The notes beneath the pieces are model-generated. The model was not told the DNA's origin, ran no database searches, and saw only the letters and a list, made by a program, of their open reading frames with translations. 64,000 nt of DNA from a virus, in the IMG/VR virus record IMGVR_UViG_3300049844_000277, positions 36,520-100,519 of that record. One strand, given 5' to 3'. A program made the translations under genes and the position numbers. Below are positions 34,129 through 62,261 of this stretch, piece after piece (the first letter of the stretch is position 1; the number at the start of each line of letters is the position of its first letter).

Positions 34129-34167
34129 CCGCACGAGCTACTCGTGCCCACAACCCGAGGAGCTCTC

Positions 34168-37100: not shown

Positions 37101-37527
37101 TAGTGTATCGGGAGCGCCGAAGTATCAAATAGGGAGAGCTGAACGTCAGACAGTTAATTTTAAAATCCAAAGCACAAGCTCTGATATCGTAATGGGACGA
37201 TTACTAGCAATCGAAGAACCTCTCAAAGATTTGGGAGGTAGACTTCTATTGACAGTGCACGACAGCCTTGGGTTTCAAATCAAGAAAAAATATATCCGAC
37301 AGCTACCTGATTTCATTTATACGTATTTGGAGAAGGGTGCAGCAGACGCCCATCCATGGCTCCCAGTCGCATTTAAATGGGACTACGAAGTTGGGTCATC
37401 ATACGGCGAACTCAAATCACTGGAATCCTACCTTGCCAACACGAAAATAGAGGAATACTCGAACGATGCCTACGTCGCCGAGGCTTTCACAGAAGAAGAC
37501 GCAAGAACCTCCCTCTCCGAACCCTGA
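34168..37527 (+). CDS. polA: Family-A DNA polymerase with N-terminal UDG-family-4-like domain and 3'-5' exonuclease domain, interrupted by a mini-intein
   Basis: UDG-like: LIIIAEAPVCDRHGNVPSSFDDDSGKII. Exo I/II/III: SVDTETN, HNAKFDLKVF, YAAVDADMT. Pol motif A: VFVNADAKGAEVRIL; motif B: RTAVKRVVFGILYGAG; motif C: LTVHDSLGF. ATG 34168 follows GAGGAG; the track ORF begins at GTG 34144. Confidence 0.9.
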   Translation: MEKPAEICSGCPREIETETHPYGYVESWIDSNAELIIIAEAPVCDRHGNVPSSFDDDSGKIIRTAVSELRNLPSHSKLAVSYTYAVLCTSNQGDKDPEKAVLQRCRTLLQADLRRANKNAVLLVMGMSALRALEIKAAKLKDMQGRLLQKQKIGEGDDAPIFDVVVTVSTKQLFAMPGIYTTFVADLRRAADAASAGGLTHVTPLEKLTEKYVIPKTIEEVRQICREILNYQEGKVSADNWPISVDTETNTKFPHRENLKVLAVSFAWAEGKATAIPLEHPTTPYAYQDAIPYVREVLASKKPKFLHNAKFDLKVFMKAGWPINGFAWDSMLGEHALEEDKKGQYGLKQLTRTFFPEFATYADSLQEMLTHEEGDSQLDNLRKAPKASTSKDGGFESIPLPTLLLYAAVDADMTRRLVLLQEKRITDEQNRVIVETNITKREQALAISARKKIRLRIAPLHSETEMLKKYMVLYPVPELCSADKPVRQLVLNNVFPVTPALARMEFKGIRIDRPYLTTLREALGKVVTETAAELQDMAGREITLNSPAEIAEILFNSGFIHPTTHAPTTYPLTGIGKTKTGQIQTTEKVMQYLVAKYQCPFAAKKLIYAKAYKAKNTFCQNVWDLSELDGYLHTNYNQHGTNSGRLSCVAGETVLDTNYGKIEIQNLDLEKMPGITIQTHELREQPILRKIEKGIEEMFEVELEDGRTITVTKKHRFLTPTGWKRLEELSENAEILCAASVGSGPNMRLVTTRIKSIRPVGPKKVWDLTVAVDHSYIAHGFVNKNSNDENMQNIPKKLAGVNIKKVFLPDDDSYVFVNADAKGAEVRILTAYCRDQALIQSLNAGQDTHCFIASKIVEIVRQSPGATAVLGSMNLSDEYPLTYEDFAARDKLKETNSKYGAMLDKFRTAVKRVVFGILYGAGPQKIAETIGISLEQAQQLIHTLFALFPSIKTYMAQTKWELQQFNLVETFFGRRRRFSVSGAPKYQIGRAERQTVNFKIQSTSSDIVMGRLLAIEEPLKDLGGRLLLTVHDSLGFQIKKKYIRQLPDFIYTYLEKGAADAHPWLPVAFKWDYEVGSSYGELKSLESYLANTKIEEYSNDAYVAEAFTEEDARTSLSEP
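36109..36522 (+). mobile_element. Intein 5 (138-aa mini-intein, no endonuclease domain) in DNA polymerase
   Basis: Junctions are TNSGRLS|CVAGETVLDTNYGKI... and ...HSYIAHGFVNKN|SNDENMQNIPK. The spliced sequence restores the PolA (T/S)GRLSS....QNIP motif. Confidence 0.8.
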
Positions 37528-38793: not shown

Positions 38794-40398
38794 TTACGCG
38801 TAGAATTTCAGGTCATTAGACACAAGCTTATGTGCAAACCATCCGAACAGTTGTGCATGAAGACAATCGTCAGGTAATTGGGGACTGTGTCGCCAAACCT
38901 TTTTACCTGACGACGTAACTTCTTCATAGACGTTCAGAATATCTTTAATCGCTTCACGTGATTCTTCTCGTGGCGGATATACAACCGAACCCCGCTTCAG
39001 AAACATGAGATAGTTATCAATCATCGTCGTGCGGTCAGCGAGATACCTGTCCAAGCCATTGTGCTTTATCGGCTGACCTAACGCTCCGTACTGCATCATG
39101 TGCACGCGGTGAGCGCCTAGACGGTCTCGTAGCGTCGCATTAGGTAGTGCGCCTTCGCCAGCGTCACCGATGACCATCGCAACAGCGTAATGCTGGCAAA
39201 TCGCAGCGATATTCTCGACATCTGCGACGGCGTTGCTTCCTGGGTAAATTCGGAAGTAGAGCGTACGTAACTTCTGTGTTGCGGGATGAAAGCCCCACAC
39301 CCATAGGACCGTACGGCTAACGCCCGTCGTTCCGCCGCCCGACCAATCAACGCCGGCAACAGTAATCGAACAGCCTTCCAAATTTTTACCTGGCGTAGGG
39401 GATATCTGGGGGCCTGTGCACAGTGCTTCGAGCTCCTCCAGTGAAATAAGTCTACGACCTACGGCATCTGATACACCCAAGACCTCATTGCGGAACTTAG
39501 CCGCGGAAAACATGTCATGGTCACGGAGGATATCATCCCAACGCGCCTGAGCGTCCTCGACTGCACTCGGCTTTTCGGGCGTATTTTTTACACACGACGG
39601 GATGTTCAGCGGCATAATCAATTGAGAAATGTGAAAGCCTTTAATGGAGTGTTTTCCAGTACCCTTGTCGGCAATACGCATATCGATCCACTGCCCTGCG
39701 CGGGGATTTAAAACCTTCCCACAATTAAGACAAATGGGGCCGTGTTTACCGAGAGACTTCTCACTAATAACGAAGTTGTATTTACTACACCCCTCGCACT
39801 TCATCACCCATTCGCTCTGAGAAGACTGATCCCACAAAAATTGAATGGAGTTCTCCATAGTTTTCGGAGTTCCGGCGTAAGTTTCGAACCGGTACGCGGA
39901 ATTCTTCATACACGCCAAAATTACGGGAATGACACTGTCGTATAATACGTCCTGTACTTCGTCAAACAAACAACGGTCAGCGGAAAAACCACGCGCACGA
40001 TCCGCGTCATCGGTCGCGTACGTGAACCCGTTCTCTGACCCGTTCGTATACGACCGATGTAATACGCGATCCGCGTGATCTGGAGATAAGAAGTATTTCT
40101 TAATCAACGGCGAATACGACAATGTTTTACCAACACGCGTGTTAGAGAACAAGAGAGTTTGCTCGCGTGAAGGACTGGAATAGTAACTCTTGAAAAATGG
40201 GCGAGAAACAGATTCAGATATAATAAAGTTAGCCAGAGATGTGCTTTTACTGACCTGACGCGCAGTCATCAGAAGCGTCGATTTATAACCTCCGTCATAT
40301 ATCGATTTGAAAAATGGATAGTCTGTAAGACTAAAGGGAGCGCCGTCTAGCCATAATAGACGCTCAGCCACTTCCGAAAGACGTTTACTTCCAATCAC
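38794..40398 (-). CDS. terL: Terminase large subunit
   Basis: N-terminal ATPase with deviant Walker A (LMTARQVSKSTSL) and Walker B (DRCLFDEVQD). C-terminal RNase-H-like nuclease acidic motifs (VAGVDWSGGG, MVIGDAGEG). Zn-ribbon CEGCSK...CLNCGK. GTG start. Confidence 0.65.
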   Translation of the reverse strand: MIGSKRLSEVAERLLWLDGAPFSLTDYPFFKSIYDGGYKSTLLMTARQVSKSTSLANFIISESVSRPFFKSYYSSPSREQTLLFSNTRVGKTLSYSPLIKKYFLSPDHADRVLHRSYTNGSENGFTYATDDADRARGFSADRCLFDEVQDVLYDSVIPVILACMKNSAYRFETYAGTPKTMENSIQFLWDQSSQSEWVMKCEGCSKYNFVISEKSLGKHGPICLNCGKVLNPRAGQWIDMRIADKGTGKHSIKGFHISQLIMPLNIPSCVKNTPEKPSAVEDAQARWDDILRDHDMFSAAKFRNEVLGVSDAVGRRLISLEELEALCTGPQISPTPGKNLEGCSITVAGVDWSGGGTTGVSRTVLWVWGFHPATQKLRTLYFRIYPGSNAVADVENIAAICQHYAVAMVIGDAGEGALPNATLRDRLGAHRVHMMQYGALGQPIKHNGLDRYLADRTTMIDNYLMFLKRGSVVYPPREESREAIKDILNVYEEVTSSGKKVWRHSPQLPDDCLHAQLFGWFAHKLVSNDLKFYA

Positions 40399-46265: not shown

Positions 46266-46652
46266 ATGTCGCTATACAACTCGCTTTTCGGCCAAGAAAC
46301 TCTGGCCCCAGTTCTCCTAAACGCGCTGAACCTGTCTCGAGAAACCGTCGGAAGATATCGAGACTGTTATCTGGCGAAGGGGGAAGACTTAGGAATGCGC
46401 ATCATCGTATTCACGCGAAACGGTGGCGGTAATCGTGAAGACTACGAAGAAGTAACTCGCTATCTTCAAGCACATCCCCTGTACGTTCGCGACTGGGATG
46501 AAGAGTACGATTGTACTTACGCGTCGTACGAGTTTCGCGTACCAGAGTCGCTAGCCAAGGCCTTGGAAAAATTTGATGAGGAAGAACTCATGCCGCAGTA
46601 CGCACCGATGGAAAAATTCAAAGCGGTAATTGAGAAGCTCAACAGTCAGTAA
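46266..46652 (+). CDS. Hypothetical protein (128 aa)
   Basis: The ORF starts 2 nt after the upstream stop and is followed by a strong terminator. Confidence 0.5.
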   Translation: MSLYNSLFGQETLAPVLLNALNLSRETVGRYRDCYLAKGEDLGMRIIVFTRNGGGNREDYEEVTRYLQAHPLYVRDWDEEYDCTYASYEFRVPESLAKALEKFDEEELMPQYAPMEKFKAVIEKLNSQ

Positions 46653-46682
46653 CAGTCCTCCTCCCCCTCCCCTTCCCCCTCT

Positions 46683-46721
46683 AGGGCTTCTACGTACGCG
46701 TAGGAGCCCTTTCTTTTTCTT
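46683..46721 (+). terminator. Rho-independent terminator
   Basis: AGGGCTTCTACG-TACG-CGTAGGAGCCCT forms a 12-bp stem with one G-U pair, followed by TTCTTTTTCTT. Confidence 0.7.
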
Positions 46722-46728
46722 AGGTACC

Positions 46729-47331
46729 ATGGACCTCTACTGTCTTCGTGTTCGTAGGAACATCGCTGGACGTAAATTTCCCTTCGATAGAGTGTATCTC
46801 GCGAAATACGGGGATCACGTTATATTCAAAAGATTATTCAGGTATGCCTTCATCCTTCCCGTTGAAGGCGTACTAAAGGAAACGCTGTACTGTCTCCCCA
46901 TTGAAGACAGCATGACGCACGCATTCGACAGAGTAGAAACGCCTGAGAAAATTCCAGATGTAGAGTGGAAGACGCTCATCGACTCGACGGACTGGGTACT
47001 CGCGGTACCGATTCTATCGAAGTACGTGACCGCTAACATGCCGAGATATATTATTGCCAAGTCCACGGTGCCCCGAAGAGACAAGAAAAACTCTAACGCG
47101 TGCGCAAACCCGTTTCCAAACATGACGTACTTGCAGACACCCGAGCAAAACATTCGGCCAATATGTGTCGCATGTCCGAACTTTATCCAGCATCAGAACG
47201 GTCACTGCGAACTTGGAGATAAGCTCTGCTACGACTCTCTTTCCCTGGGAATCCGAAATCACTTTGAAGAAGGCATGATGGTTCCTCCTGCCCCGGAAAA
47301 AGAACAAGTGACTGAGGAGGGGAACGACTAA
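46729..47331 (+). CDS. Hypothetical Cys-containing protein, first gene of the RT operon
   Basis: ATG at 46729 (MDLYCLRVRR...) lies just after the terminator; the track ORF start 46630 would read through the hairpin. Contains CVACPNFIQHQNGHCELGDKLC. TAATG overlap with the RT start. Confidence 0.5.
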   Translation: MDLYCLRVRRNIAGRKFPFDRVYLAKYGDHVIFKRLFRYAFILPVEGVLKETLYCLPIEDSMTHAFDRVETPEKIPDVEWKTLIDSTDWVLAVPILSKYVTANMPRYIIAKSTVPRRDKKNSNACANPFPNMTYLQTPEQNIRPICVACPNFIQHQNGHCELGDKLCYDSLSLGIRNHFEEGMMVPPAPEKEQVTEEGND

Positions 47332-48467
47332 TGCCTGTCTACAAACAAAATTTCCTTGAGCGAATTGAAGTACGCGAGCCACTCATCAAAGGCGTACCCC
47401 TTATCGTCGATGACTGGAGTCTGGCATTCCAGCTAGGTTTTACGGGTAAGACCGCGTGGTACATCATCCATGAACGCGCCAGTATGTACCGGGAGTTCAT
47501 GCTGAAAAAGAAGTCTGGGGGTCTCCGTAGAACGTTTGATCCAACTAACCTCCTGCGCATTTTCCAGAAACAACTACGCGCACGCATTCTGTTCCCGCTC
47601 GTATCTCGCCTAGGTCCGCACGTAGCCGCGTATCAGGTCGGTAAGAGCACGCTTGATGCGGCAAACTGGCACCTGCGCGAGTGTAAAATCTGCGACGACA
47701 CGACCCGTCCCGGCACGAGTCCTGTGAAACATGAGTGTCCTCGACGGGGTGTGAAGTTCAAAATGGATTTGAAGGATTTCTTTCTATCGACTCGTCGGTC
47801 CTGGATACGACAGTATTTCCACGAAGTCGTCGGATACAATCACTACGTCTCGTCGATTCTGGGGCACCTACTGACGACGAGTTATAAAGATGAGCGGAGA
47901 AAAGACAGGAACGGCGTTCCGCCAGGCGCATTAACAGCTGGCGATATTTGTAATCTCATCTGTGATTGGAAGATAGATCAACCGCTTATGGCGGCACTAC
48001 CCACAGGCTGGAAGTACACACGGTACGCCGATGACTTGTATTTCTCGTACGACGCACCCCTTCCATCAAAAGAAGTAAACAAGATAATCCGACTAGCCTC
48101 GGACACCATCACCGGCTCCGGTTACCGGGTAAATTGGAAAAAGCTCCAAGTGCAACACTGGAGCCGGCCCCAGCGAGTACTAGGTATCAATATCAACAGA
48201 AAACTAAACATCCCTGCGACTGAGTACCGTCGAATGCACATGATTCTGTATAAAGCAAAGAAGCATGGATTCCAGGCGCAACTTACGTGGGCAAAGAAAG
48301 CCGATGTTCCGGAACTTCACGCCTGGATAACCGGCAAACTGAATTACTACGCGCGATTCGCACCAGATAAAACCAATAAACTACAACGGCTTTATCAAGA
48401 AGCGAAGGACGCGAATCCAAGCGAAGAGGCCGCGGTGTTCAACTTTGGAACCGGTGCAAACCCATGA
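47331..48467 (+). CDS. Reverse transcriptase, retron/Abi-like
   Basis: YREFMLKKKSGGLRRTFDP (RT1/2), AAYQVGKSTLDAANWH (NAxxH-like), KMDLKDFFLST (RT3), GVPPGALTAGDICN (RT4), YTRYADDLYFSY (YADD, RT5), RVLGININ (RT7, VTG-like). There is a Cys-containing ~25-aa insertion between NAxxH and RT3. GAGGAGG RBS. Confidence 0.8.
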   Translation: MPVYKQNFLERIEVREPLIKGVPLIVDDWSLAFQLGFTGKTAWYIIHERASMYREFMLKKKSGGLRRTFDPTNLLRIFQKQLRARILFPLVSRLGPHVAAYQVGKSTLDAANWHLRECKICDDTTRPGTSPVKHECPRRGVKFKMDLKDFFLSTRRSWIRQYFHEVVGYNHYVSSILGHLLTTSYKDERRKDRNGVPPGALTAGDICNLICDWKIDQPLMAALPTGWKYTRYADDLYFSYDAPLPSKEVNKIIRLASDTITGSGYRVNWKKLQVQHWSRPQRVLGININRKLNIPATEYRRMHMILYKAKKHGFQAQLTWAKKADVPELHAWITGKLNYYARFAPDKTNKLQRLYQEAKDANPSEEAAVFNFGTGANP

Positions 48468-49840
48468 ACATGTACACGGTTTGCCACGCGTACGATGCAC
48501 GTAACGCAAGGTCAGATGCACTTGCGCTTTTGTTCAATACTCCCGACACTAAAAAAATAGCAGGAATCCCTGAGCTCTCCGAAATATATCCCAACGGATA
48601 TTTCGTCACTAGTATCTCCGACATAAAATCAGGAGACCCCTACAGACACTCATACTACCAAAGACAAAGATACTCCCACAATCCTGCTCCTTACACGATG
48701 GTATCCATTTTCGCTACGTACCCCCGTCCAGATGAGGCAAAACTAAACAGCGAAGATATTTGCTTCTTCGTAAATGGAAAAACATATCAGGTTAATCTAC
48801 GTACCCGCTACAACCACTGCCTGTCGTTGTTCAAAGCGGTAGGTTGTGCGCAATGCCCTGATAACGGGCTCCCCTGCGTATCCCAGGAAGCCGAAGAGCT
48901 AATCGAGCTTGATAAGAAACTCACCGACGCCGAAAGGCCTGTGTATTTCAACGAGACAGCGTTCTCGAACAATACCGAGTTCTTGAACGATATCGACGAC
49001 ATAGAGTTCTTAAAGTACCTACAAAGAAAGCACCCGTCCCTCGGTGACTTCAAACTTGTCAAACCCGGATCAACAAGTCCACGTTCGTTCCATAGTACTT
49101 TCCGCCCGTACTGGGACCACGACTTTTCGCTAGTTCCACGTAATGAAAAAGAAAAGTCAGACGCGGCATCTCGAGCAGCACGGACACGTAAGTTCAAGAA
49201 GGAAGAATGTCCTCAGTGCGTCATCAAAGATAGCTGCTCGAATGCATCCCGGTGTGATGGTAGATATCCGCCACAGGAGACGATTATCAAGCAGGCGAAT
49301 GCGGAGCTTACTGCGGCGATAGCCGGGTCGATACTTCCCGAGTGGGCGATATGGGAAGTTGCTCGAGGCGCGGGACAAACAGCAAAACATTCCAGGTGGC
49401 ACATCATGCTCACCGGAATACTATTAGACCGATATGGAAATGGGTCTCTCCGCGCTACAGTTCACCGCGCAAAAACAGACATCGATGAGTACAAAAGACT
49501 CAATACGTACGAAGAAATCGCTGAAGTATTTAACTTAGCGAAAACGGAAAAAGATGTGCCGCCCGAGCGTGGACCACTGAGGAGCTTTGAGCTCCGCGCA
49601 GTTTGGTGGTTGGCGCTTCTTGCTCGCTCAACCGCTCGAAGGGCTACAGGTTGGGGAGGTTCCCGGTACGTCGTAAGTATCGGTGTAGATGAGAAGACCG
49701 GTATCTCGCTCGAATGGACAAACGGGCGAGATATATCCCACTGGCACAGCAACAATCTACGTAAGATTGAAGATGTATCGAGGTGCCTCACGCCGAATAG
49801 TTTGTACGGCGTAGCTAAGGAACAATTCGTTCAGCGGTAG
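48464..49840 (+). CDS. Hypothetical protein (458 aa), third gene of the RT operon
   Basis: ATGA overlap with the RT stop. Several Cys pairs (CAQCPDNGLPC, CPQCVIKDSCSNASRC). No family recognised. Confidence 0.55.
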   Translation: MNMYTVCHAYDARNARSDALALLFNTPDTKKIAGIPELSEIYPNGYFVTSISDIKSGDPYRHSYYQRQRYSHNPAPYTMVSIFATYPRPDEAKLNSEDICFFVNGKTYQVNLRTRYNHCLSLFKAVGCAQCPDNGLPCVSQEAEELIELDKKLTDAERPVYFNETAFSNNTEFLNDIDDIEFLKYLQRKHPSLGDFKLVKPGSTSPRSFHSTFRPYWDHDFSLVPRNEKEKSDAASRAARTRKFKKEECPQCVIKDSCSNASRCDGRYPPQETIIKQANAELTAAIAGSILPEWAIWEVARGAGQTAKHSRWHIMLTGILLDRYGNGSLRATVHRAKTDIDEYKRLNTYEEIAEVFNLAKTEKDVPPERGPLRSFELRAVWWLALLARSTARRATGWGGSRYVVSIGVDEKTGISLEWTNGRDISHWHSNNLRKIEDVSRCLTPNSLYGVAKEQFVQR

Positions 49841-52275: not shown

Positions 52276-52614
52276 ATGTCTGACTGCTCTTCTTCTTCCC
52301 TTCCCTCCCCTTCTTCCCTTCCCTCTTCTTCTTCCCCTTCTTTTGACGCCGACATTCTGGCCGATGCCGAATCACGCGAGTACAACGAGTTCCTTCGCCG
52401 CGCTTACCTCCGCCGACGAATAGATAAACCTGGCTCTCGGTTAATCGGATACGGCGGCATGCCGAAGAATGACCAGCAAGCGAGATTCGGGCCCGCGATT
52501 TGGGAGTTTACGCCGGAGATCGCCAATATGGCGGCGCGGTATGCTTCTTATGTGCAGGGTCGGTACCTCCGATATCTCCGCGTCCGTCTTCCCCCACGAC
52601 ATCGGGAGTCATAG
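52276..52614 (+). CDS. Hypothetical protein (start uncertain; the 5' part is a Ser/Pro-rich translation of a C/T tract)
   Basis: Track ORF 52219..52614. The 5' ~90 nt is a polypyrimidine tract that may be non-coding. Confidence 0.3.
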   Translation: MSDCSSSSLPSPSSLPSSSSPSFDADILADAESREYNEFLRRAYLRRRIDKPGSRLIGYGGMPKNDQQARFGPAIWEFTPEIANMAARYASYVQGRYLRYLRVRLPPRHRES

Positions 52615-52619
52615 TCACA

Positions 52620-53651
52620 ATGGAACGTGCGTACGGCGTAGCAATTGCCTCCATCTATTTGGAGAAGCTGAAGTATCACGTCTTTCCTATTCGGCAGATA
52701 CTCGGAATAACGACTGGAGAACCCCGCTGTGACTGTACGGATGAAACGTGTCCGAACGTCGGAAAACATCCGCGAGTAGCGTGGTCTAAGAATACTGCGA
52801 CCGCGTCTGCTTGGGAACGTTGGCCAAATGACGGCTTTGGAATCGCAACAGGTGCGCGTTCGGGTATTTGGGTCTTGGATGTCGACCCGAAGAATAACGG
52901 TCCGGAGACACTACGGGTGCTCGAGCAGGCTCCAGGGCACGCTCCATTACCCAGGACAATAACCGTAAAGACGGGCTCGGGAGGGGAACATTACTACTTC
53001 CGATATCCTGGTCCGAATTACCGTAACACCGCCGGTGCGCTCGGGTTGGGACTAGACACGCGTGGTGACGGTGGATTCGTCGTTGGGCCTGGGTCACTGC
53101 ACAAGAGCGGGCGACGGTACACGTGGAAGCATGGGCCCGCCGATGCGCCGCTCGCCGATCCGCCTGAGTGGTTGCTCAAGTTGGTGAAGCAAACAGCCAA
53201 ATACCGGCGAGACGTGAACGTTGAAAAACAAGGGCTGCACACAGCACCTGTCCCACGCGCAGAGGCGGAATATCTTCTCGAAATAATGTTGGACCCGGAC
53301 TGCAGGCTAACGCAGTGGATGCGCACGTCTCCCGACGACGTCAGCCGAGAAACGTGGCGAGGATTTGCGACAAACCTCGCTTGCGCTGTAGTCGATCATC
53401 CTGAGTTGATCGAAAAAGCCTGCGAAGCGTTCCACGAAATCTCGTCCGGATATTCGCGCTATAAGGTTTCTGAAACGGAGCGAGTATTTAGAGATTCCGT
53501 AACAGTTGCACGGGTTTACGGCCCAATGTCGTTCGAGCACATGGTGAGGTCAGGAATGCCCTCAGAGCACGCTATTCCTCCCCACGCAAAAAACTTGTTG
53601 CACTCCGCGCAGTTGGAGATGCGGAGAAAAAGGCCTCGCAAGTCGGATTGA
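52620..53651 (+). CDS. Bifunctional primase-polymerase (Prim-Pol, archaeo-eukaryotic primase superfamily)
   Basis: YHVFPI...GKHPRVAW...GFGIATGARSGIWVLDVDPKNNG...TVKTGSGGEHYYFRYP...GLDTRGDGGFVVGPGSLHKSGRRYTW. ATG 52620 lies right after the upstream stop and a GGGAG. Confidence 0.8.
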   Translation: MERAYGVAIASIYLEKLKYHVFPIRQILGITTGEPRCDCTDETCPNVGKHPRVAWSKNTATASAWERWPNDGFGIATGARSGIWVLDVDPKNNGPETLRVLEQAPGHAPLPRTITVKTGSGGEHYYFRYPGPNYRNTAGALGLGLDTRGDGGFVVGPGSLHKSGRRYTWKHGPADAPLADPPEWLLKLVKQTAKYRRDVNVEKQGLHTAPVPRAEAEYLLEIMLDPDCRLTQWMRTSPDDVSRETWRGFATNLACAVVDHPELIEKACEAFHEISSGYSRYKVSETERVFRDSVTVARVYGPMSFEHMVRSGMPSEHAIPPHAKNLLHSAQLEMRRKRPRKSD

Positions 53652-53826
53652 AAAGTGGAATCCTCTCCGCTTCACACTTCACGCTTCGCGTCCGCGGCGC
53701 CTTCGAAAAACCTCGCCACACCCTTGCCGTCCGAACACATAAGCGGGTCTTCCCGTACCCACTCAGTCAAAGACGGCAAGGATGTGACGTAGGCGCCCCA
53801 CCATCCCCCACGGAAAGAGGAGCATA

Positions 53827-55728
53827 ATGCTGCTGCCTAGTCCTGCTGAGGTCAAAGAACTAATCGTCTCTGCAGCCTTTCAAAGCGATGCGTTCATCGT
53901 GGCAAAAGGCGAAAAGACGCAAACAATGAAGGATATAGAAGCTGAAAAAGCGGCCCACGCAATGGCGGCCCGTCAGTCTAGTGGTCTACCACAAAGTACA
54001 AACGCACTTCAAACTTCGCCAAACCCGGACCCTGCGCCACCTCCCGTAGTGGAGAAGTTGGCCGGGGTTCTTAAGTTCCTAATCCAGAATGACCCCGTAC
54101 TGCTAGCAAAAACGAAGATTGAATTCAAAAAGCATTTCACAGGAGTCCTGACAAAGGGAAAGCTCATCTTAGAGCCTCTTTGTGACTCCCTCTTCGATTC
54201 AGCATCGGCCGAAGACATCACCTACAAAGAATTACGTAAGTTGGGAATGCATCGGGGCGGGCAGATACCCGGCGTGGAGACGTTGGGCCGGTGGATTCGA
54301 AGTGAAGCGTATAGCCAGTGCGTACCCAACGGACCACTGACCGATGACTACGTCTCCTTAATAGTCTTACTCACGCTCGACCCTGAGCTTCTAAAGGGCA
54401 AGCTGGAGTGGGACGATATGAACAAGGCTATTACGATTAACAGAGAACCTATTGATTTAGCAAAGACAGTAAGTCGAATCCGTACGCAGATAGGGGATAC
54501 TTACTCTCAGGAAGTCGGACGCTTACGTAAAATGCGTCGAATCGTCCCCTCACATCAATCTGTAGAGCAAGCCCTGGAAGCCCTGGCGAAGGAAAATCCG
54601 TTCCACGCAACGAAAGAATGGATGGACGCGCTCCCTGCGTGGGACGGCGTCGACCGCATGCTTCCGCTCCTAAAGGCTATCAGAGGCTGGGTGGATACGT
54701 CTGCCATTGACATGCCGCAACATATAAAAGAAGAGCACGAAAGGATAAACAACCTAGCGCTGAAACAGCTAACCAAAACACTCATCGGCACGGTAGCTAG
54801 AACATACGAGCCCGGGTGTCAGATGGACACGATGTTAGTGTTAAAATCCAAGCAGGGGACCAAGAAATCCACATTATTCCGCGTACTGGCACCAGCAGGT
54901 AGGTTCTCGGCATCGCACGGTGAATTCGGGACTAAAGACTCCCGAATGGTATACACGAAGAATACCTGGGTAGAGATTGCGGAACTGAGTGGGATGCAAC
55001 GCAAAGAAATACAAACAATCAAAGCTGAAATCAGTGACCGCAGTGATGACTTCCGACCACCGTACGCTAAAGCTATCATCAATAACCCTAGGTGGTGCGT
55101 GCTCGTAGGGTCTACGAACGACGATAAGTTCCTGAAAGACCAGTCGGGGTCGCGTCGATTCTGGATTATCGTCATAGGAGACGACACGAAGGCGGATATG
55201 GTCTTCGTGGAGAACAATAAGCCACAGCTATGGGCACAGGCGGTGGCTCTCTATAAGGCTGCCCCTATGTGCCAGGACTGCCTCGCGCGGGCCGATGGGG
55301 AGACCCGCTGCCCGACGCACCGCTGGTGGCTTACCGACGAGGAGGACAGCTTCAGAGAGAAGTACAACGAGAACTTCACGGAAGTGGAACCCTACGTAGA
55401 GGCGCTCAGGGACTGGATGAGCAGCGCAATCTCGGACCGTCGTTCGTCGAAACAGGGGCTACACACGGCGGTAAAAAATACCGACCACATGACGGTCGCG
55501 CAATTTCTTCAGGAGGTCATTATGCTACCGCCAGAGAAGGTTTTTGATCGAATCCAGCAGGATAGAATGGCCCGAGCACTCAAAATTTGCGGATACACTA
55601 AAAAACACACAGAACACGGAAATATTTGGATAAGTCCAGGAATGCGCAATAGACCAGATTTGAAATTAGTCGCTAAAGAAAAAACAGAGGCGGTATCGGA
55701 GAATTTGACAAAAACGTCGGAACAATGA
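53827..55728 (+). CDS. VirE / D5-like primase-associated P-loop helicase
   Basis: Walker A reads LKSKQGTKKSTLF. Also WVEIAELSGM, FRPPYAKAIINNPRWCVLVGSTNDDKFLKDQSGSRRFWII. AAGAGGAG RBS. Confidence 0.75.
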   Translation: MLLPSPAEVKELIVSAAFQSDAFIVAKGEKTQTMKDIEAEKAAHAMAARQSSGLPQSTNALQTSPNPDPAPPPVVEKLAGVLKFLIQNDPVLLAKTKIEFKKHFTGVLTKGKLILEPLCDSLFDSASAEDITYKELRKLGMHRGGQIPGVETLGRWIRSEAYSQCVPNGPLTDDYVSLIVLLTLDPELLKGKLEWDDMNKAITINREPIDLAKTVSRIRTQIGDTYSQEVGRLRKMRRIVPSHQSVEQALEALAKENPFHATKEWMDALPAWDGVDRMLPLLKAIRGWVDTSAIDMPQHIKEEHERINNLALKQLTKTLIGTVARTYEPGCQMDTMLVLKSKQGTKKSTLFRVLAPAGRFSASHGEFGTKDSRMVYTKNTWVEIAELSGMQRKEIQTIKAEISDRSDDFRPPYAKAIINNPRWCVLVGSTNDDKFLKDQSGSRRFWIIVIGDDTKADMVFVENNKPQLWAQAVALYKAAPMCQDCLARADGETRCPTHRWWLTDEEDSFREKYNENFTEVEPYVEALRDWMSSAISDRRSSKQGLHTAVKNTDHMTVAQFLQEVIMLPPEKVFDRIQQDRMARALKICGYTKKHTEHGNIWISPGMRNRPDLKLVAKEKTEAVSENLTKTSEQ

Positions 55729-55788
55729 ACTTATTAAAAAACAATAGGTGTAAGCAAGTTTCGGGCCAACAAACTTTTTCAAAAATTC

Positions 55789-56125
55789 CTGAAAGGGGCG
55801 TTCAGCCGCAAATGTCCGTAATTACTAAAACTCGAAGAAAAACCTGAACAGGCTGAATGCCCTGACATGGTGCTTCTTATATAAGCATGGAGTAACAGGG
55901 GTATTACTGACCCACCCTGGGTCATTTTTGACGGACACTGGGTATAAAGTTCAGAAACATATTCAGGGTATTCAGGTATTCAGTTATCCAATAAAATCAA
56001 GTACTTAGAACGAAAAATGGCTGAATACCCCCTGAATATCCCCCCCTATGGCACCAGAATTGCTTGTGCGGTCAAAATCGAACTTTCTGGGCTATTTTCT
56101 GGGCTATTATTTTGTTCAGTATTCC
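55789..56125. repeat. Iteron-like array built on a TTCAG/CTGAA core
   Basis: Three direct (A/G)TATTCAG units lie at 55959-55983. Two inverted units, CTGAATAC and CTGAATAT, lie at 56021-56039 across an AT-rich spacer. CTGAACAGG-CTGAATGCC-CTGACATGG lies at 55844-55870, and further TTCAG/CTGAA copies lie at 55789, 55801, 55950 and 56115. Confidence 0.6.
56085..56108 (+). repeat. Perfect tandem duplication TTCTGGGCTATT x2
   Basis: Read directly at 56085-56096 and 56097-56108. Confidence 0.9.
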
Positions 56126-56436
56126 TTTTAACCAAATGCCCGAACTGGCGAACATTGATCACGTGCCATCCCGCGCGCCCAACATTGATCCCGTGCTGTC
56201 CGAGCCGACCCTCAGCGGGGTCAAGCTCCCGTGCTGTCCGCGCCAGCCTCCGGCCGGCCCCGCTTCCGCAAGGGAAACCTTCCCGACGTCCCGACGAAGA
56301 CTATACCCTAGCCTAGCCTTATCCTCCACCCCCGTCCCCACTCTCGCTGTAGCCGTAGATTTCCTGGCAAGTCTCGCCAAAGGCCTCCAGCGGGCCGTAG
56401 GACCGACGAACCGGCGTAACCCGGTCCGACCCCTTG

Positions 56437-56482
56437 CCCGACCCCCGAACGTCGCTCCTGCGCCCGCCTAGGCCCCTTCCCG
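56437..56482 (+). repeat. 46-bp exact direct repeat, copy 1 (C-rich island)
   Basis: CCCGACCCCCGAACGTCGCTCCTGCGCCCGCCTAGGCCCCTTCCCG. Confidence 0.9.
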
Positions 56483-56561
56483 CCGGTCCGCCGAATCCGC
56501 CTCAAACCGCCCTGAGTGGCCTCCAGGCGCTCAAACGCCCCAGACCCGACCCAAGACCCTA

Positions 56562-56607
56562 CCCGACCCCCGAACGTCGCTCCTGCGCCCGCCTAGGCCC
56601 CTTCCCG
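56562..56607 (+). repeat. 46-bp exact direct repeat, copy 2
   Basis: Identical 46-mer located 125 bp downstream of copy 1. Confidence 0.9.
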
Positions 56608-56645
56608 GCCTAGACTCGAGGGGAACTCTCGCCGGGAGAAGACCC

Positions 56646-56870
56646 TTGAAGCCCCTACCCGCCCTGACGCTTCGCGACGTCCTCAAGAACGAAATTGAAA
56701 ACGATCGACGGAACGTCGAACAGATTTCCGTCTCTCGCCAGGATTCAGTTAACCGTTCAATCGCCATATGTGCGCGCCGGTACATCGAAGCGCTGGACTT
56801 TGGCGATGAAACGTTGTTGTTTGATGCCGAAGATAATTTGCGGCTTGCGCTTGATAACGTTCGTTCTTGA
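56646..56870 (+). CDS. Hypothetical small protein (TTG start, uncertain)
   Basis: ORF of 74 aa with protein-like composition (…RDVLKNEIENDRRNVEQISV…). It contains no ATG. Confidence 0.3.
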   Translation: MKPLPALTLRDVLKNEIENDRRNVEQISVSRQDSVNRSIAICARRYIEALDFGDETLLFDAEDNLRLALDNVRS

Positions 56871-56888
56871 TTATTCGCTTACTTCAAA

Positions 56889-57446
56889 ATGTTATTTCTC
56901 GGAGTCGATCAATCACTACGCAGCTCCGGAGTGGCTGTCATTTCCGAGGAACAAGAATCTGTCTATCTTGGGCGTATAGCCCCTGCTAAGCTTTCAGATG
57001 CACCAAGGTTGGCTGCAATAAGAGACGCATTACAGACACTCATTACTACAACACCAGACATCCGCTTTGCCGCGCTAGAAGGGTACGCGTATGACGTTGG
57101 CGCTGGTAGAGTGTTTGAGCTGGGTGAAGTTGGCGCTGTTGTTAAGTTGGCGCTTTATGACGCTAAAATCCCGTTTATCGTCGTTCCGCCGGCCTCTCTA
57201 AAGCAATTCGTAGCTGACCACGGCAACGCCAATAAGACGCAAATGCGGATATCTGTATTACGTCGTTGGGGTTATGACATTACCCAGGACGACGAATGTG
57301 ATGCCTTTGGTTTGGCGCAAGTCGCTAGAGCTGTACACCTTAACAAGGGCACGACTCGCTCCGAACTCGAAGTACTGAAGAAGCTACGTACAACAGACAA
57401 GAAGGTTTCTTTAGTCAGCTTCAAGACCCGATTCCCTTCCATCTAA
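56889..57446 (+). CDS. RuvC-like Holliday junction resolvase (phage type)
   Basis: MLFLGVDQSLRSSGVAVI (first Asp), ALEGYAY (Glu), DECDAFGLAQVA (Asp..Asp). Confidence 0.7.
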   Translation: MLFLGVDQSLRSSGVAVISEEQESVYLGRIAPAKLSDAPRLAAIRDALQTLITTTPDIRFAALEGYAYDVGAGRVFELGEVGAVVKLALYDAKIPFIVVPPASLKQFVADHGNANKTQMRISVLRRWGYDITQDDECDAFGLAQVARAVHLNKGTTRSELEVLKKLRTTDKKVSLVSFKTRFPSI

Positions 57447-57458
57447 GAGAATAAGAAT

Positions 57459-57659
57459 ATGCGTTGCTCCAACTGCGAATCCCCGATGAAGGATGTCGAC
57501 GGTATGACTGTTCGGCTTAATAAGGACAATACAGCCCTCACGCATCTCTGCGGTGAGTGTATCTCAGGAGTTTTGACGCTTAAGATTGTCTTGTCCCGTC
57601 AGCGGGCGCAGGATTCGTTTACGTTTTCTGGTTATTTGCCGGTAGCGTCGGAGAGGTGA
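57459..57659 (+). CDS. Small zinc-ribbon protein
   Basis: CSNCES ... CGEC in 66 aa. Confidence 0.4.
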   Translation: MRCSNCESPMKDVDGMTVRLNKDNTALTHLCGECISGVLTLKIVLSRQRAQDSFTFSGYLPVASER

Positions 57660-57886
57660 GTGAGAGTGAGGAGCTTATGAGCAAGAGACGTTGCATCGAG
57701 TGCGAAGAAATAATTCCACCGGATTCTCTTTTTTACCGAGTGACTCGCCCAGGAGACCAAGCCATTGAGAGCTGCTGTGCGCGATGTGTTCCGAGCTTAC
57801 GGGCTCGCGTGAAGGCCGCCAATGCTTTGTACGTGGAATTCGGTCGCGCCGATGAGGTGGCTCCTTTACCGCAGCCGGTGAACTGA
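57656..57886 (+). CDS. Small zinc-ribbon protein
   Basis: CIECEE ... CCARC. GTGA overlap with the upstream gene; alternative ATG at 57677. Confidence 0.4.
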   Translation: MSESEELMSKRRCIECEEIIPPDSLFYRVTRPGDQAIESCCARCVPSLRARVKAANALYVEFGRADEVAPLPQPVN

Positions 57887-57889
57887 ACG

Positions 57890-58375
57890 ATGCCTCTTTT
57901 ACCGAGTACATTGTCGTCCGGACTCATAAAGCTCGACGACCCGAGTGGTCCCAATCCCAAGAACATCCCTGCGGTAGCGCAGGCTTGGTTTAATCTTTGG
58001 TGGGACTATGCGCAGAACATGACGTACTTGGTTCCTGGAGGCGGCGGACGGCCTCTCGTCGAAAGTTCGTTCAAATCAATTTTGATGGGCGGGCTTTCAC
58101 CGGTTCCTGTGCCGATAACTTTCTTTGTAGCTTTGGGCACAGCGATGTTGGCGGCGTGGGCGACGCTAGGAACTCCGGCGACTCTCACACCGCCGATTGT
58201 ATCCCTGATTCCGCAGCCCGTACCGTTTGCACCAGCGGGCGTCGCAATAGTTCCAATCGGGATGGCATCAAAAGATAAGAAGCTTCCTCGGGCGGCGCTA
58301 GCGACGCTCATTCATACGTGGACAATCACAGCGCAGGCCGTTGGTCCCAGCGGTCCTGTGGGGCCTATCTCGTAG
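57890..58375 (+). CDS. Hydrophobic/membrane-like hypothetical protein
   Basis: Hydrophobic stretches include FFVALGTAMLAAWATLG and AGVAIVPIGM. Confidence 0.4.
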   Translation: MPLLPSTLSSGLIKLDDPSGPNPKNIPAVAQAWFNLWWDYAQNMTYLVPGGGGRPLVESSFKSILMGGLSPVPVPITFFVALGTAMLAAWATLGTPATLTPPIVSLIPQPVPFAPAGVAIVPIGMASKDKKLPRAALATLIHTWTITAQAVGPSGPVGPIS

Positions 58376-58955: not shown

Positions 58956-59867
58956 ATGTCTGCTCAAATTGTTCCGTTTCAGTTCGAAGGCGAAGAAGAA
59001 GTTCGAGTCATCATGAAGAACGGAGAGCCGTGGTTCGTTGCTTCAGACCTGTGTCGGGTCCTGGACATCAAGGACGTCTCCGTCGCCGTACGTAACTTCC
59101 CGGAATCACTGATTGGTCGGTGTTTAACACCGACGAGCGCGGGGGAGCGAGAAGCCATTACCCTCAGCGAAGCCGGCATGTGGCGGCTGGTCATGCGCTC
59201 CGACAAGCCCAAGGCCCTCGAGCTCCAACAGTGGCTTTCGGAGCACGTACTTCCGAGTATTCGTAAGACCGGTGTGTACTTTGCCGGGATTTCTCCTGAA
59301 TCGCTGAAAAGCCAGCGCGTTCAGCACGCTATTCAGCTCGTACACCTCACTGCTGAATTCGAGTTAGCACAGGAGCAACTTAACGAACATACCCGGCAAC
59401 TGATTCGGCAGAATCAGGCTCTCAATAAGCATGAACAACAGTTGAAGACCCTCGAAGAGACAACGGCCATCATCGACGACTACGTCACCATTAAGGGAGC
59501 CGCAAAGAAGCTCGGGGTACGCATCGATTCAACTCTCGCTGGAATGATGGGTAAAGTCGCAGCGACCCGAACTAAGCAGCGGGGGTTACTCATTCGAGAT
59601 GTTGCTGATTTACAACACGGAACAGTGCACGCATATCCTCGAGAAATCGCGGAAGAGGCAGTGCTGTTTGTAACGGCGAATGAACCACAGCGGCTCATCG
59701 AAAAACAAGAAGCCGCAGCGAAGAGGGAAGCGAAGAAGCTTGAGCAGATGAAGGAGGAAGCTAGCGCAGTTCCTACTTCTAACGGAGCGTCGAAGCATAG
59801 GCTCCAATTTATCGATCTTCCGGATGACGCATTTTTGAAGGAAGATGATAAGTCGACCATACAATGA
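58956..59867 (+). CDS. BRO-N domain protein (antirepressor-like)
   Basis: QIVPFQFEGEEEVRVIMKNGEPWFVASDLCRVLDIKD...WRLVMRSDKPKALELQQWL. AAAGGAG RBS. Confidence 0.7.
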   Translation: MSAQIVPFQFEGEEEVRVIMKNGEPWFVASDLCRVLDIKDVSVAVRNFPESLIGRCLTPTSAGEREAITLSEAGMWRLVMRSDKPKALELQQWLSEHVLPSIRKTGVYFAGISPESLKSQRVQHAIQLVHLTAEFELAQEQLNEHTRQLIRQNQALNKHEQQLKTLEETTAIIDDYVTIKGAAKKLGVRIDSTLAGMMGKVAATRTKQRGLLIRDVADLQHGTVHAYPREIAEEAVLFVTANEPQRLIEKQEAAAKREAKKLEQMKEEASAVPTSNGASKHRLQFIDLPDDAFLKEDDKSTIQ

Positions 59868-62122: not shown

Positions 62123-62183
62123 TAGTCTCGACTTCACTAAACCGTCTGCTTCACCAGCGCGGTAGACCTTGGGGTTTAGTGAA

Positions 62184-62256
62184 CTCCCCGAGTAGGACTC
62201 GAACCTACGACCTAGCGATTAACAGTCGCTCGCTCCACCAGCTGAGCTATCGGGGA
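62184..62256 (-). tRNA. tRNA-Asn (anticodon GTT)
   Basis: The reverse complement folds as TCCCCGA-TA-GCTC-AGCTGGTG-GAGC-G-AGCGA-CTGTTAA-TCGCT-AGGTC-GTAGG-TTCGAGT-CCTAC-TCGGGGA-G. The 7/4/5/5-bp stems are perfect, the T-loop is TTCGAGT, and CCA is not encoded. Confidence 0.9.
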
Positions 62257-62261
62257 AGATG

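Follow-up and report, generated by a model that had tools for sequence, protein, structure and literature searches.

The array of short repeats that follows the primase and helicase genes in the 64,000-nucleotide stretch of viral DNA analyzed here (the window) probably serves a large uncultured phage of the ~190 kb class as its replication origin, built on the pri-rep-ori plan of the SaPI and PICI satellites. It is a known design in a new setting rather than a new kind of element. An origin had been suggested by the first-pass annotation, and the comparative evidence now favors that reading through a layout kept in 16 of 17 relatives, through covariation of the repeat units with the adjoining helicase, and through the homology of this helicase to SaPI Rep.

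The array is composed of units of 8–9 bp with a 5-nt core, TTCAG, the best copies being GGTATTCAG. Eleven TTCAG/CTGAA cores were counted in 340 bp, compared with a window mean of 0.93 and six at the second-densest place, in agreement with the earlier claim of at least ten units in both orientations. TTCAG is found on the plus strand at 55801, 55950, 55962, 55971, 55979 and 56115, and CTGAA at 55789, 55844, 55853, 56021 and 56032; the 11 exact cores and approximately 14 unit-like sites lie within 55774–56119. Counted over both strands, the 64 kb window has 13 copies of the exact heptamer TATTCAG, five of them inside 80 bp (55960–56038). These counts were used because a general measure of repetition, taken from the best 8-mer at one mismatch or none, fails to separate the gap in the window from coding sequence, scoring 6 against a coding maximum of 7, whereas it does separate the gap from the coding background in relatives L049, L012, L015, L014 and L013. 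The units of the window are more heterogeneous than those of several relatives.

The array begins at about 55774, its first unit lying 46 bp past the helicase stop codon. Module A (55774–55805, plus strand) is formed by two forward units 23 bp apart, a degenerate CTTTTTCAA (55774–55782) and GGCGTTCAG (55797–55805), with an extra reverse unit, CTGAAAGGG (55789–55797), between them. It is followed by module B (55844–55870, minus strand), three reverse units with a period of 9 whose sequences CTGAACAGG, CTGAATGCC and CTGACATGG constitute a triplet already recognized in the first-pass annotation. Between the two proposed half-origins, a hairpin, TGACCCA-CCC-TGGGTCA, is followed by TTTTT (55908–55929, plus strand); it has the look of an intrinsic terminator and could be merely the terminator of the helicase operon. 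Module D (55946–55983, plus strand) contains an extra forward unit, AAAGTTCAG, and three direct copies, CATATTCAG, GGTATTCAG and GGTATTCAG (55958–55983), with periods of 9 and 8. As previously described, these three copies face two inverted ones across a 37-bp AT-rich spacer (55984–56020, 27% GC), the inverted copies being the reverse units of module F (56021–56040, minus strand), CTGAATACC (56021–56029) and CTGAATATC (56032–56040), 11 bp apart. A perfect 12-bp tandem, two copies of TTTCTGGGCTAT (56084–56107, plus strand), was also present as reported, and together with an additional forward unit after it, TTTGTTCAG (56111–56119, plus strand), occupies the position of a conserved “block G” in the relatives.

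The spacer between modules D and F, where unwinding or bending might take place, includes AATCAAGTACTTA (55995–56007), which matches the IHF consensus WATCAANNNNTTR exactly; this pattern has only three matches in the whole window. With a duplex ΔG of −32.1 kcal/mol, the 30-mer that begins at 55978 is one of several in the array region to pass the 99th percentile of duplex instability in the window (−34.0). The 400 bp from 55620 to 56019 have the lowest GC content of the window (0.385).

The earlier view that no convincing ORF is present was sustained: ORFs within the region have no Pfam or PHROG family match, tblastx over 55729–56615 revealed no conserved coding signal, and a conserved protein-coding gene was not found. 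The extent proposed for the element required revision, as the noncoding stretch runs from 55729 to ~56615, longer than the interval first delimited, and the array starts at ~55774, as given above. The right part of this stretch (56135–56615) is a C-rich, repeat-rich noncoding block in which a 64-nt repeat occurs at 56419 and again at 56544 and GAACGTCG motifs are present; it is an expanded form of a C-rich block of ~130 nt found ahead of the next gene in the relatives. GAACGTCG was considered as a genome-wide promoter-like motif and rejected (seven matches versus 3.9 expected, not significant). An independent Logan contig of the same phage stops at window position 56466, within the repeat of the C-rich block. 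The cumulative G−C minimum of the window falls at 57071, within ~1 kb of the array. Because the C-rich block drives this minimum, GC skew, one of the checks proposed at the outset, is compatible with an origin but not decisive; without 56135–56700 the trough is broad, ~49–57 kb, in a window that represents about one third of the genome.

Both genes expected of the proposed design lie immediately upstream, in accord with the first-pass assignments. The PrimPol-type primase gene (“pri”; 52500–53651, plus strand) matches Pfam PF09250 (3.8e-36) and the PHROG DNA primase family; its true start may be the ATG at ~52620, as on the Logan contig, and the gene as called on L007 encodes 343 aa. It ends 175 bp before the start of the helicase gene, and every relative for which upstream sequence is available has it in this place, directly before the helicase. 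The helicase gene (“rep”; 53827–55728, plus strand) encodes a VapE-like, SF3-type protein (Pfam PF05272, 8.2e-55), the proposed self-loading initiator-helicase. A profile of 25 homologues matches PDB 7PDS, the SaPI1 Rep1 structure, over residues 183–474 (E=5.4e-38), and the best Foldseek matches of an AF2 model (pLDDT 78) are 7pds chains (E=3e-15, ~490 columns, TM(target) 0.59–0.64). The C-terminus, residues ~555–605 (55489–55641, plus strand), models as a winged helix, with a proposed recognition helix at residues 575–587 (RIQQDRMARALKI) and a wing hairpin at residues 591–602 carrying E596 at its tip. The last 190 bp of the helicase gene are AT-rich, and the possibility that they mark a recombined C-terminal domain, and thus a module swap, was abandoned because the C-terminal ~55 aa are no less conserved than the remaining protein.

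Seventeen relatives were compared, uncultured phage contigs of ~140–196 kb whose helicases are 37–62% identical to that of the window. Closer or cultured counterparts were sought in several ways: megablast of 53000–58000 against 50,697 phage records gave no match, the exact triple-repeat pattern was absent from the viral contigs searched, a single-protein scan of viral contigs returned only relatives below 32% identity, and identity to the helicases of cultured phages reaches ~31% at most. A search of genome contigs yielded distant matches only and therefore no clue to the host.

In all 17 relatives, a gene-free gap of 290–670 bp directly follows the VapE-like helicase gene. A common layout is seen in 16 of the 17, shared only in part by the most distant, L018: two forward units, three reverse, the hairpin, three forward, the AT-rich spacer with its IHF-consensus match, and two reverse. 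The slot of module B is filled by reverse clusters of two to four units and that of module D by three tandem forward units with a period of 7–11, each in 16 of the 16 relatives that share the layout. Spacings among loci are quantized at 21 and at 31 or 41 bp. The two units of module A are 20–23 apart across loci (20–21 bp in eight relatives), A2 and B1 are 31 or 39–42 apart (64 in L054), and D3 and F1 are 31 or 41–43 apart. The module F pair is spaced at 19–23 bp in 13 relatives' loci, 30 bp in L053 and 11 in the window, the relatives' spacings corresponding roughly to whole helical turns. Six relatives (L008, L013, L052–L055) have perfect stems, 6 bp or longer and of differing sequence, in the interval from module B to module D; inspection of the alignment by eye showed an imperfect version of the GCGGTCAAATAGCCAC block, with a C·A mismatch, in L009, L012, L014, L017 and L049. 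At eight loci the sole exact IHF-pattern match of the locus sits in the spacer slot, always on the plus strand. DnaA boxes, looked for by eye in the relatives' blocks C and G, were dropped from consideration, the best strings having only seven of nine matches.

Conservation of the units in related phages had been named as a check on the origin reading, and the units proved to be kept in place while their sequence changes in concert. The unit is GTATTCAG in the window, GGTGTTCAC in L009 and L012, GGGTTCAC in L056, GGGTTCAG in L015, L048, L053 and L054, TGGTTCAG in L014 and L052, GGTCGTCAG or GGTAGTCAG in L011 and L013, TCCTTCAC in L017, GGGGTCAC in L063, and GGGGTAG in L018. All slots within one genome change unit together, even the copies that lack a pairing partner. 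Such concerted change fits protein-binding sites; it does not fit RNA stems or a gene.

The candidate reader of these sites was indicated by covariation, assessed with a hand-curated slot table across 16 related sequences, in which residues of the C-terminal winged helix of the helicase covary with unit bases. Loci were classified by an objective count of TCAG versus TCAC, giving 11 G-type and five C-type loci, the latter occupying at least four separate places on the helicase tree. A single helicase column of the 621 that are ungapped separates the two types, and it corresponds to wing residue 596, which is D or E in 11 of 11 G-type loci and K or N in five of five C-type loci; in PrimPol, none of 322 columns does so. 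The alternative of T or G at position 3 of the unit is separated by seven helicase columns, three of which (575, 579 and 587) lie in the 13-residue recognition helix; residue 579 is A, D, M or S with one base and K or R with the other. For P0023, whose helicase has K at the positions of both 579 and 596, units with a final C and a G-rich flank were predicted blind, and the prediction was borne out: this locus carries AGGGGTCAC about ten times in the layout seen in the other relatives. Among further helicase homologues, the residue after the “HT” motif is K or N in P0010, P0012 and P0016, D or E in P0002, P0005, P0006, P0009, P0014, P0017 and P0019, and M in P0024, and P0025 lacks the motif; units with a final C are predicted for the first group and with a final G for the second.

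The closest parallels to this arrangement are the origins of phage satellites. SaPI Rep is initiator and helicase in one and reads 5–6-nt iterons through a C-terminal winged-helix domain; the origin comprises 6–12 iterons immediately downstream of rep, with pri upstream, and has an AT-rich centre with at least two iterons per side in opposing directions (PMC9371898). The arrangement is the same in Gram-negative PICIs (PMC6092414). In modules of this type, replication from the origin fragment depends on Rep, which needs no ATP to bind and melt it. The window resembles them in the order of primase, helicase-initiator and origin, the latter immediately 3' of the helicase ORF; in a helicase homologous to SaPI1 Rep1 (7PDS) with a modelled C-terminal winged helix; and in short iterons, at least two on each side of an AT-rich centre and opposing, with a specificity that varies among lineages. 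It differs in being part of a large, lytic-type phage genome rather than a ~15-kb satellite island, in a primase that is a separate PrimPol, in units of 8–9 bp instead of the 5–6 nt of SaPIs, in having two mirror-image modules, a central hairpin and conserved extra blocks after them, and in the IHF-consensus match of its right spacer. PICIs are elements of ~10–20 kb with an integrase and dependence on a helper, whereas the phage polymerase and terminase genes of the window and the 140–196 kb contigs of the relatives indicate a module that would be SaPI-like in its working, yet is not a PICI.

The alpha protein of satellite phage P4 is described as a primase-helicase that recognizes repeated octamers through a winged-helix origin-binding domain at its C-terminus (Yeo et al. 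2002, cited in PMC2777425; PMC6092414). In P4, primase and helicase are fused in one protein, with ori and crr away from the gene, unlike the two genes of the window and its array directly after the helicase stop codon. The P4 type I repeat, which we take to be TGTTCACC, resembles the GGTGTTCAC unit of L009 and L012. Iteron-bearing theta origins (RK2 oriV, pSC101, R6K gamma, P1 oriR) and lambda ori have helically phased initiator sites beside an AT-rich unwinding element, often together with an IHF site and a G+C-rich flank, and their initiators use winged-helix domains. TrfA, RepA, Pi and lambda O are non-helicase initiators that recruit DnaB, and their iterons are 17–22 bp long and mostly direct. 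In contrast, the proposed reader in the window is the helicase itself and the units are of 8–9 bp in both orientations. Classical plasmid iteron origins, which rely on host DnaA and DnaB and have DnaA boxes beside the unwinding element, are further set apart by the lack of a convincing DnaA box in this system, and a search beside the array found no Rep_3/TrfA-type gene. In the archaeal plasmid pRN1 (ORF904), the essential cis region of 166 bp is reported to lie directly downstream of the replication gene (PMC4234260), and iterons are reported not to be discernible (PMC2777425). pRN1 thus resembles the window in combining prim-pol and SF3 helicase functions with a cis region directly downstream of the gene, and differs in its one fused protein, its archaeal host and the absence of discernible iterons.

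These features suggest a model in which the VapE-like helicase encoded immediately upstream would serve as the phage's own initiator, its C-terminal winged helix reading the 8–9-bp iterons with their TTCAG core. The iterons would form two mirror-image half-origins with the hairpin between them, the left (55774–55870) having two forward and then three reverse copies and the right (55946–56040) three to four forward and then two reverse copies. Convergent iteron sets would thereby flank AT-rich spacers, and the IHF-consensus match of the right spacer might allow a host factor to bend it. Protomers of the helicase, bound to the same face of the DNA, could then form hexamers that melt the AT-rich stretch and are loaded in opposing orientations, after which the adjoining PrimPol would prime synthesis. 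Helicase binding, DNA melting, helicase loading and bidirectional replication are all inferred, as is any part played by IHF. Alongside a large terminase and an ORF of 2836 aa, the window encodes a DNA polymerase, another helicase and a beta-like subunit of RNA polymerase. Further routes of initiation, for example dependent on transcription or recombination, could coexist with an origin at the array.

The evidence that the helicase reads the units fits equally well with a locus that binds the initiator in an auxiliary role, whether for copy control, for titration or for handcuffing, or that is a cis enhancer in the manner of P4 crr or plasmid inc iterons, with synthesis starting elsewhere. P4 replication requires both the alpha protein and the cognate site crr (PMC6092414), and a second array is possible since the window covers 64 kb of a ~190 kb genome. 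We nevertheless regard this explanation as improbable: convergent iterons around AT-rich spacers directly 3' of rep are the experimentally shown SaPI origin, the GC minimum of the window falls in the array stretch, and no second cluster exists in the window, where the densest other place, with its six TTCAG cores, lies within the BRO-N gene and is at about chance level. Quite improbable, in our estimation, is an operator or promoter-control cluster through which a transcription factor, such as a small DNA-binding protein, BRO-N/Ant or a ParB-like protein, would regulate the genes past the helicase operon. The region does lie between two co-directional gene blocks, contains the terminator-like hairpin and leads through a conserved C-rich block to the next gene, and the phage-encoded RNA polymerase subunit makes novel promoter types possible. 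Against this, a sigma-70 promoter scan found none, the units track winged-helix residues of the helicase and no PrimPol column, and the dyad-symmetric, two-module layout with whole-helical-turn spacings is typical of origins; the units are without parS-like palindromy, the ParB-like gene is 25 kb away, and small DNA-binding proteins such as ParB-like or BRO-N have no specific support.

Inverted copies of TTCAG could pair, and the hairpin is followed by a T-run, so that direct and inverted copies might be taken for the sides of RNA stems in a structured noncoding RNA or in a 3'-UTR or terminator element. This is very unlikely given that copies switch to one new unit whatever their partners, including those of the same orientation and in unequal numbers (three forward versus two reverse), unlike the independent compensatory changes of stems, and that spacings are kept in steps of ~10 bp, a property of double-stranded DNA. 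No Rfam match was obtained at E≤1 in 55600–56950, and Rfam at gathering thresholds identified nothing but one tRNA in the whole window. The chances of a packaging (pac/cos) or centromere-like partition site, as the target of either a small terminase subunit or a ParB-like protein, are likewise slight. Repeat arrays in AT-rich DNA, frequently accompanied by IHF sites, are typical of such elements as well, and both a ParB-like and a large terminase gene are present in the window, but these genes lie 15–25 kb away (terminase 38794–40398, ParB-like 30276–31250), whereas the array is linked in every relative to the helicase gene, not to terminase or ParB, and it is with the helicase that the units covary.

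Origins of large uncultured phages have almost never been mapped, and in this case a precise candidate of ~350 bp is provided together with its probable reader. The pri-rep-ori design of small satellites (SaPI, PICI, P4) would be extended to a clade of 190-kb-class phages, while the current picture of how iteron origins function is unchanged. The 16 natural origin–initiator pairs nominate two specificity-determining residues, which might aid origin annotation, the prediction of replicon compatibility and the construction of orthogonal origin–initiator pairs. More tentatively, and as a possibility that we do not favor, an entire clade of ~190 kb uncultured phages with their own DNA and RNA polymerases may start replication at a double-module origin of dyad symmetry by means of a self-loading initiator-helicase of the satellite type, with an origin specificity repeatedly re-tuned by one or two residues, 596 setting the last base of the unit and 579 the third. 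If this is true, natural variation in these phages would amount to a readable protein–DNA recognition code for the winged-helix family of the helicase, and re-tuning would yield separate replicon specificity groups, possibly allowing a phage to escape cross-use of its initiator by co-infecting relatives or satellites.

Cores of the form TTCAG/CTGAA, around which 8-9-bp units are built, accumulate immediately 3' of the VapE-like helicase gene (53827-55728; Pfam PF05272, 8.2e-55), reaching 11 cores per 340 bp against a window mean of 0.93. Of the 13 exact matches to the 7-mer TATTCAG in the 64-kb window, five are packed into 80 bp. The first-pass annotation had described an iteron-like array here, with three direct copies facing two inverted copies across a 37-bp spacer, a triplet (CTGAACAGG/CTGAATGCC/CTGACATGG) and a perfect 12-bp tandem, and every one of these elements was found in place, within an array spanning approximately 55774-56119. 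The AT-rich part of the non-coding stretch is its left 400 bp, and the segment 55620-56019, with a GC content of 0.385, is the lowest-GC 400 bp of the whole window. The second densest place, 59031-59370, holds six cores per 340 bp, one of them part of a TATTCAG copy at 59330; these fall within a BRO-N/Ant-like gene, and their number is about that expected by chance over 64 kb.

The helicase gene, preceded by a PrimPol gene (52500-53651; PF09250, 3.8e-36), forms the left border of the stretch, and a RuvC-like resolvase gene (56889-57446) the right. Megablast detected no close cultured phage, and the best tblastn match was at ~31% identity; protein searches recovered ~25 metagenomic helicases at 45-62% identity on contigs of at most 196 kb. 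The DNA of 17 non-redundant relatives was used for comparison. PrimPol precedes the helicase in every relative for which upstream sequence was available, and all 17 have a 290-670 bp gap 3' of the helicase, in which gene callers placed either nothing or short non-conserved ORFs. Calls of 38-102 aa overlap the arrays at three relatives' loci (L063, 4270-4578; L011, 5926-6084; L056, 4917-5033); since they are not conserved between loci, they are probably spurious. Comparison by tblastx revealed a small conserved gene of ~74-84 aa on the + strand at ~56616-56870, directly upstream of RuvC, with 45-56% identity to L015, L048, L049 and L014 and no Pfam family match. Its counterpart in relatives sits ~1 kb past the helicase, indicating that the window is without the two to eight small genes that relatives carry between origin and RuvC. 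The remainder, 55729-56615, gave no coding signal in tblastx against relatives, and the ORFs inside the non-coding region had no Pfam or PHROGs matches, so that no conserved gene was found beneath the array.

Slots were defined from an alignment of the gaps and from every TCA[G/C/A] site tabulated in its context, revealing an order identical in 16 relatives. Slot A consists of two forward units spaced 20-23 bp and is separated from slot B by 31 bp in five loci, 39-42 bp in three and 64 bp in L054; slot B contains two to four reverse units with periods of 8-10 or 17-19. An interval of ~110 bp (C), often with a hairpin within it, leads to three forward units with a period of 7-11 (slot D), a spacer of 31-32 bp in 10 loci and 41-43 bp in six including the window, and finally two reverse units (slot F) spaced 19-23 bp in 13 loci, 11 bp in the window and 30 bp in L053. 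Nearly all of the differences in spacing between loci approximate whole helical turns, as is typical where proteins sit along one face of a DNA duplex. The D-F module is the A-B module turned 180 degrees, and the array thus comprises two mirror-image half-sites. In L018, the most distant relative at 37% identity, the copies at the centre and on the right are present; this locus was left out of the slot table.

The unit itself is specific to each lineage. It is GGTATTCAG in the window, GGTGTTCAC in L009 and L012, GGGTTCAC in L056, GGGTTCAG in L015, L048, L053 and L054, TGGTTCAG in L014 and L052, GGTCGTCAG / GGTAGTCAG in L011 and L013, TCCTTCAC in L017, and GGGGTCAC in L063. Every slot of one genome bears that genome's unit, including same-orientation copies that are unable to pair. 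The units are therefore conserved in relatives as concerted, lineage-specific versions in fixed slots, the pattern expected of numerous sites that evolve together with a single DNA-binding protein. Neither of the two observations that the first-pass annotation had named as refuting its reading, a conserved gene at this place or units lacking conservation in related phages, was made in the comparison. In L018 (helicase ORF of 936 aa) three tandem forward copies and the reverse copies are kept with a quite different unit, GGGGTAG; the C-terminus of its helicase is without the Q-x-R-M...HT-x-G motif, and it may therefore carry a different DNA-binding tail.

A candidate for this protein is the helicase. 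Its family profile strongly matches one solved structure, DNA-bound SaPI1 Rep1 (7PDS; E=5.4e-38), and the best Foldseek matches of the AlphaFold model of the window helicase (pLDDT 78) are 7pds chains (E=3e-15), covering nearly the whole target chain. SaPI Reps are both helicases and initiators, whose C-terminal winged-helix domain recognizes penta- or hexanucleotide iterons; the SaPI origin has six to twelve iterons directly 3' of the rep ORF and an AT-rich centre with at least two iterons per side in opposite directions, and the primase gene lies just upstream of rep (PMC9371898). Gram-negative PICIs have an arrangement like SaPI pri-rep-ori (PMC6092414). The window matches these SaPI features in its Rep-homologous helicase, iterons, AT-rich centre and upstream primase.

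An objective typing of 16 loci by TCAG and TCAC counts per gap gave 11 G-type loci (12-14 TCAG against 0-6 TCAC) and five C-type loci (10-16 TCAC against 1-7 TCAG). Among 621 ungapped helicase columns, residue 596, at the wing tip, is the sole column with non-overlapping residue sets, being D/E in all G-type loci and K/N in all C-type loci. The C-type loci occupy at least four separate places on the helicase tree: L009/L012 within a G-type clade, L056, L017 next to G-type L055, and L063. In the neighbouring PrimPol, none of 322 columns separates the two types. The third base of the unit, T or G, is separated by seven helicase columns, three of which (575, 579 and 587) lie within the predicted recognition helix of 13 residues; at position 579, T-type units go with A, D, M or S and G-type units with K or R. 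For the homologue P0023, which has K at both 596 and 579, a G-rich flank and final C were predicted before its DNA was seen, and its gap, arranged as in the other relatives, proved to contain roughly ten copies of AGGGGTCAC. Sites, conservation and covariation were all computed here. Because few loci were sampled and these are related to one another, the covariation, which is the main sign that the helicase itself reads the units, constitutes strong circumstantial evidence rather than proof.

The right-hand spacer contains AATCAAGTACTTA (55995-56007, + strand), which fits the IHF consensus WATCAANNNNTTR exactly and is one of only three such matches in the window. In eight loci (window, L008, L009, L011, L012, L052, L054 and L063) the locus's only exact match falls in the D-F spacer, always on the + strand, making a host-factor bend between convergent iteron sets plausible. 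The interval between the two modules contains a 7-bp hairpin with a trailing TTTTT (55908-55929) and, in six relatives, perfect stems of 6 bp or more that differ in sequence; the hairpin may be a helicase-operon terminator, a structural origin element, or both. Beyond the last iteron by ~10-110 nt, relatives have a conserved block (e.g. L009 6197-6290) with a direct repeat CACATGNTC ~45 nt apart, GAAAAACGGGC, then GCCTTCCGGCA-CATGGG-TGCGG, which might serve for priming or be bound by a second protein; in the window (56041-56135) this block has diverged and a tandem TTTCTGGGCTAT x2 occupies its place. The following 480 bp (56135-56615) are C-rich (GC 0.61-0.73, GC skew down to -0.36) and repetitive, with 64-nt repeats at 56419 and 56544 (89% identical), further repeats of 31 and 21 nt and GAACGTCG x3. 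This segment resembles an enlarged form of the C-rich block of ~130 nt (CCGAACGTCGYC...) that precedes the next gene in relatives. The repeat is also where L007, an independent Logan contig of this phage, breaks off (window position 56466), so the number of copies assembled here may not be reliable. The cumulative G-C curve, calculated for the window only, has its minimum at 57071, which depends on the C-rich block and is otherwise a broad trough at 49-57 kb; this is compatible with the origin that the first-pass annotation had proposed here, without demonstrating it.

The window is part of a large phage, encoding an RNA polymerase beta-like subunit (9086-10885, - strand), a ParB-like protein (30276-31250, +), DNA polymerase (34144-37527, +), large terminase (38794-40398, -) and tRNA-Asn (62183-62257, -). 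The phage's own polymerase probably serves its transcription, and sigma-70-based promoter scans may therefore overlook its promoters. A 378-aa ORF at 47331-48467 (+) matches reverse transcriptase RVT_1 (2.4e-14) between small unannotated ORFs (46266-47331 and 48464-49840) and may represent a diversity-generating or other phage retroelement.

By analogy with SaPI Rep, from which binding, melting, loading and bidirectionality are all inferred, the winged-helix domains of helicase protomers would contact the units in phase along one DNA face, on both sides of each AT-rich spacer. Hexamer assembly would then distort and melt the spacer, and the two mirror-image modules would load two hexamers in opposite orientation, with PrimPol priming and the phage's own polymerase continuing. 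The most serious rival accepts that the helicase binds the array and regards it as an auxiliary site for control or enhancement, with replication starting elsewhere; the two-thirds of the genome outside the window could contain a second array. An operator array for another protein, the other reading in the first-pass annotation, finds little support, as do a packaging or partition site and an RNA element; RNA stems, a hidden gene or simple shared descent would not produce the concerted identity of units across the slots of one genome.

As a candidate origin, the region would work like the SaPI/PICI pri-rep-ori module, whose initiator-helicase is homologous to the helicase encoded here, although the genome, being that of a large phage, is not a PICI. 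It differs from SaPI origins in its longer units, in its two mirror-image modules around a central hairpin, in the IHF-type consensus within the spacer and in the additional conserved blocks beyond the array. For an uncultured clade of large phages, these results provide a precise, testable candidate origin and nominate two residues as candidate determinants of specificity.
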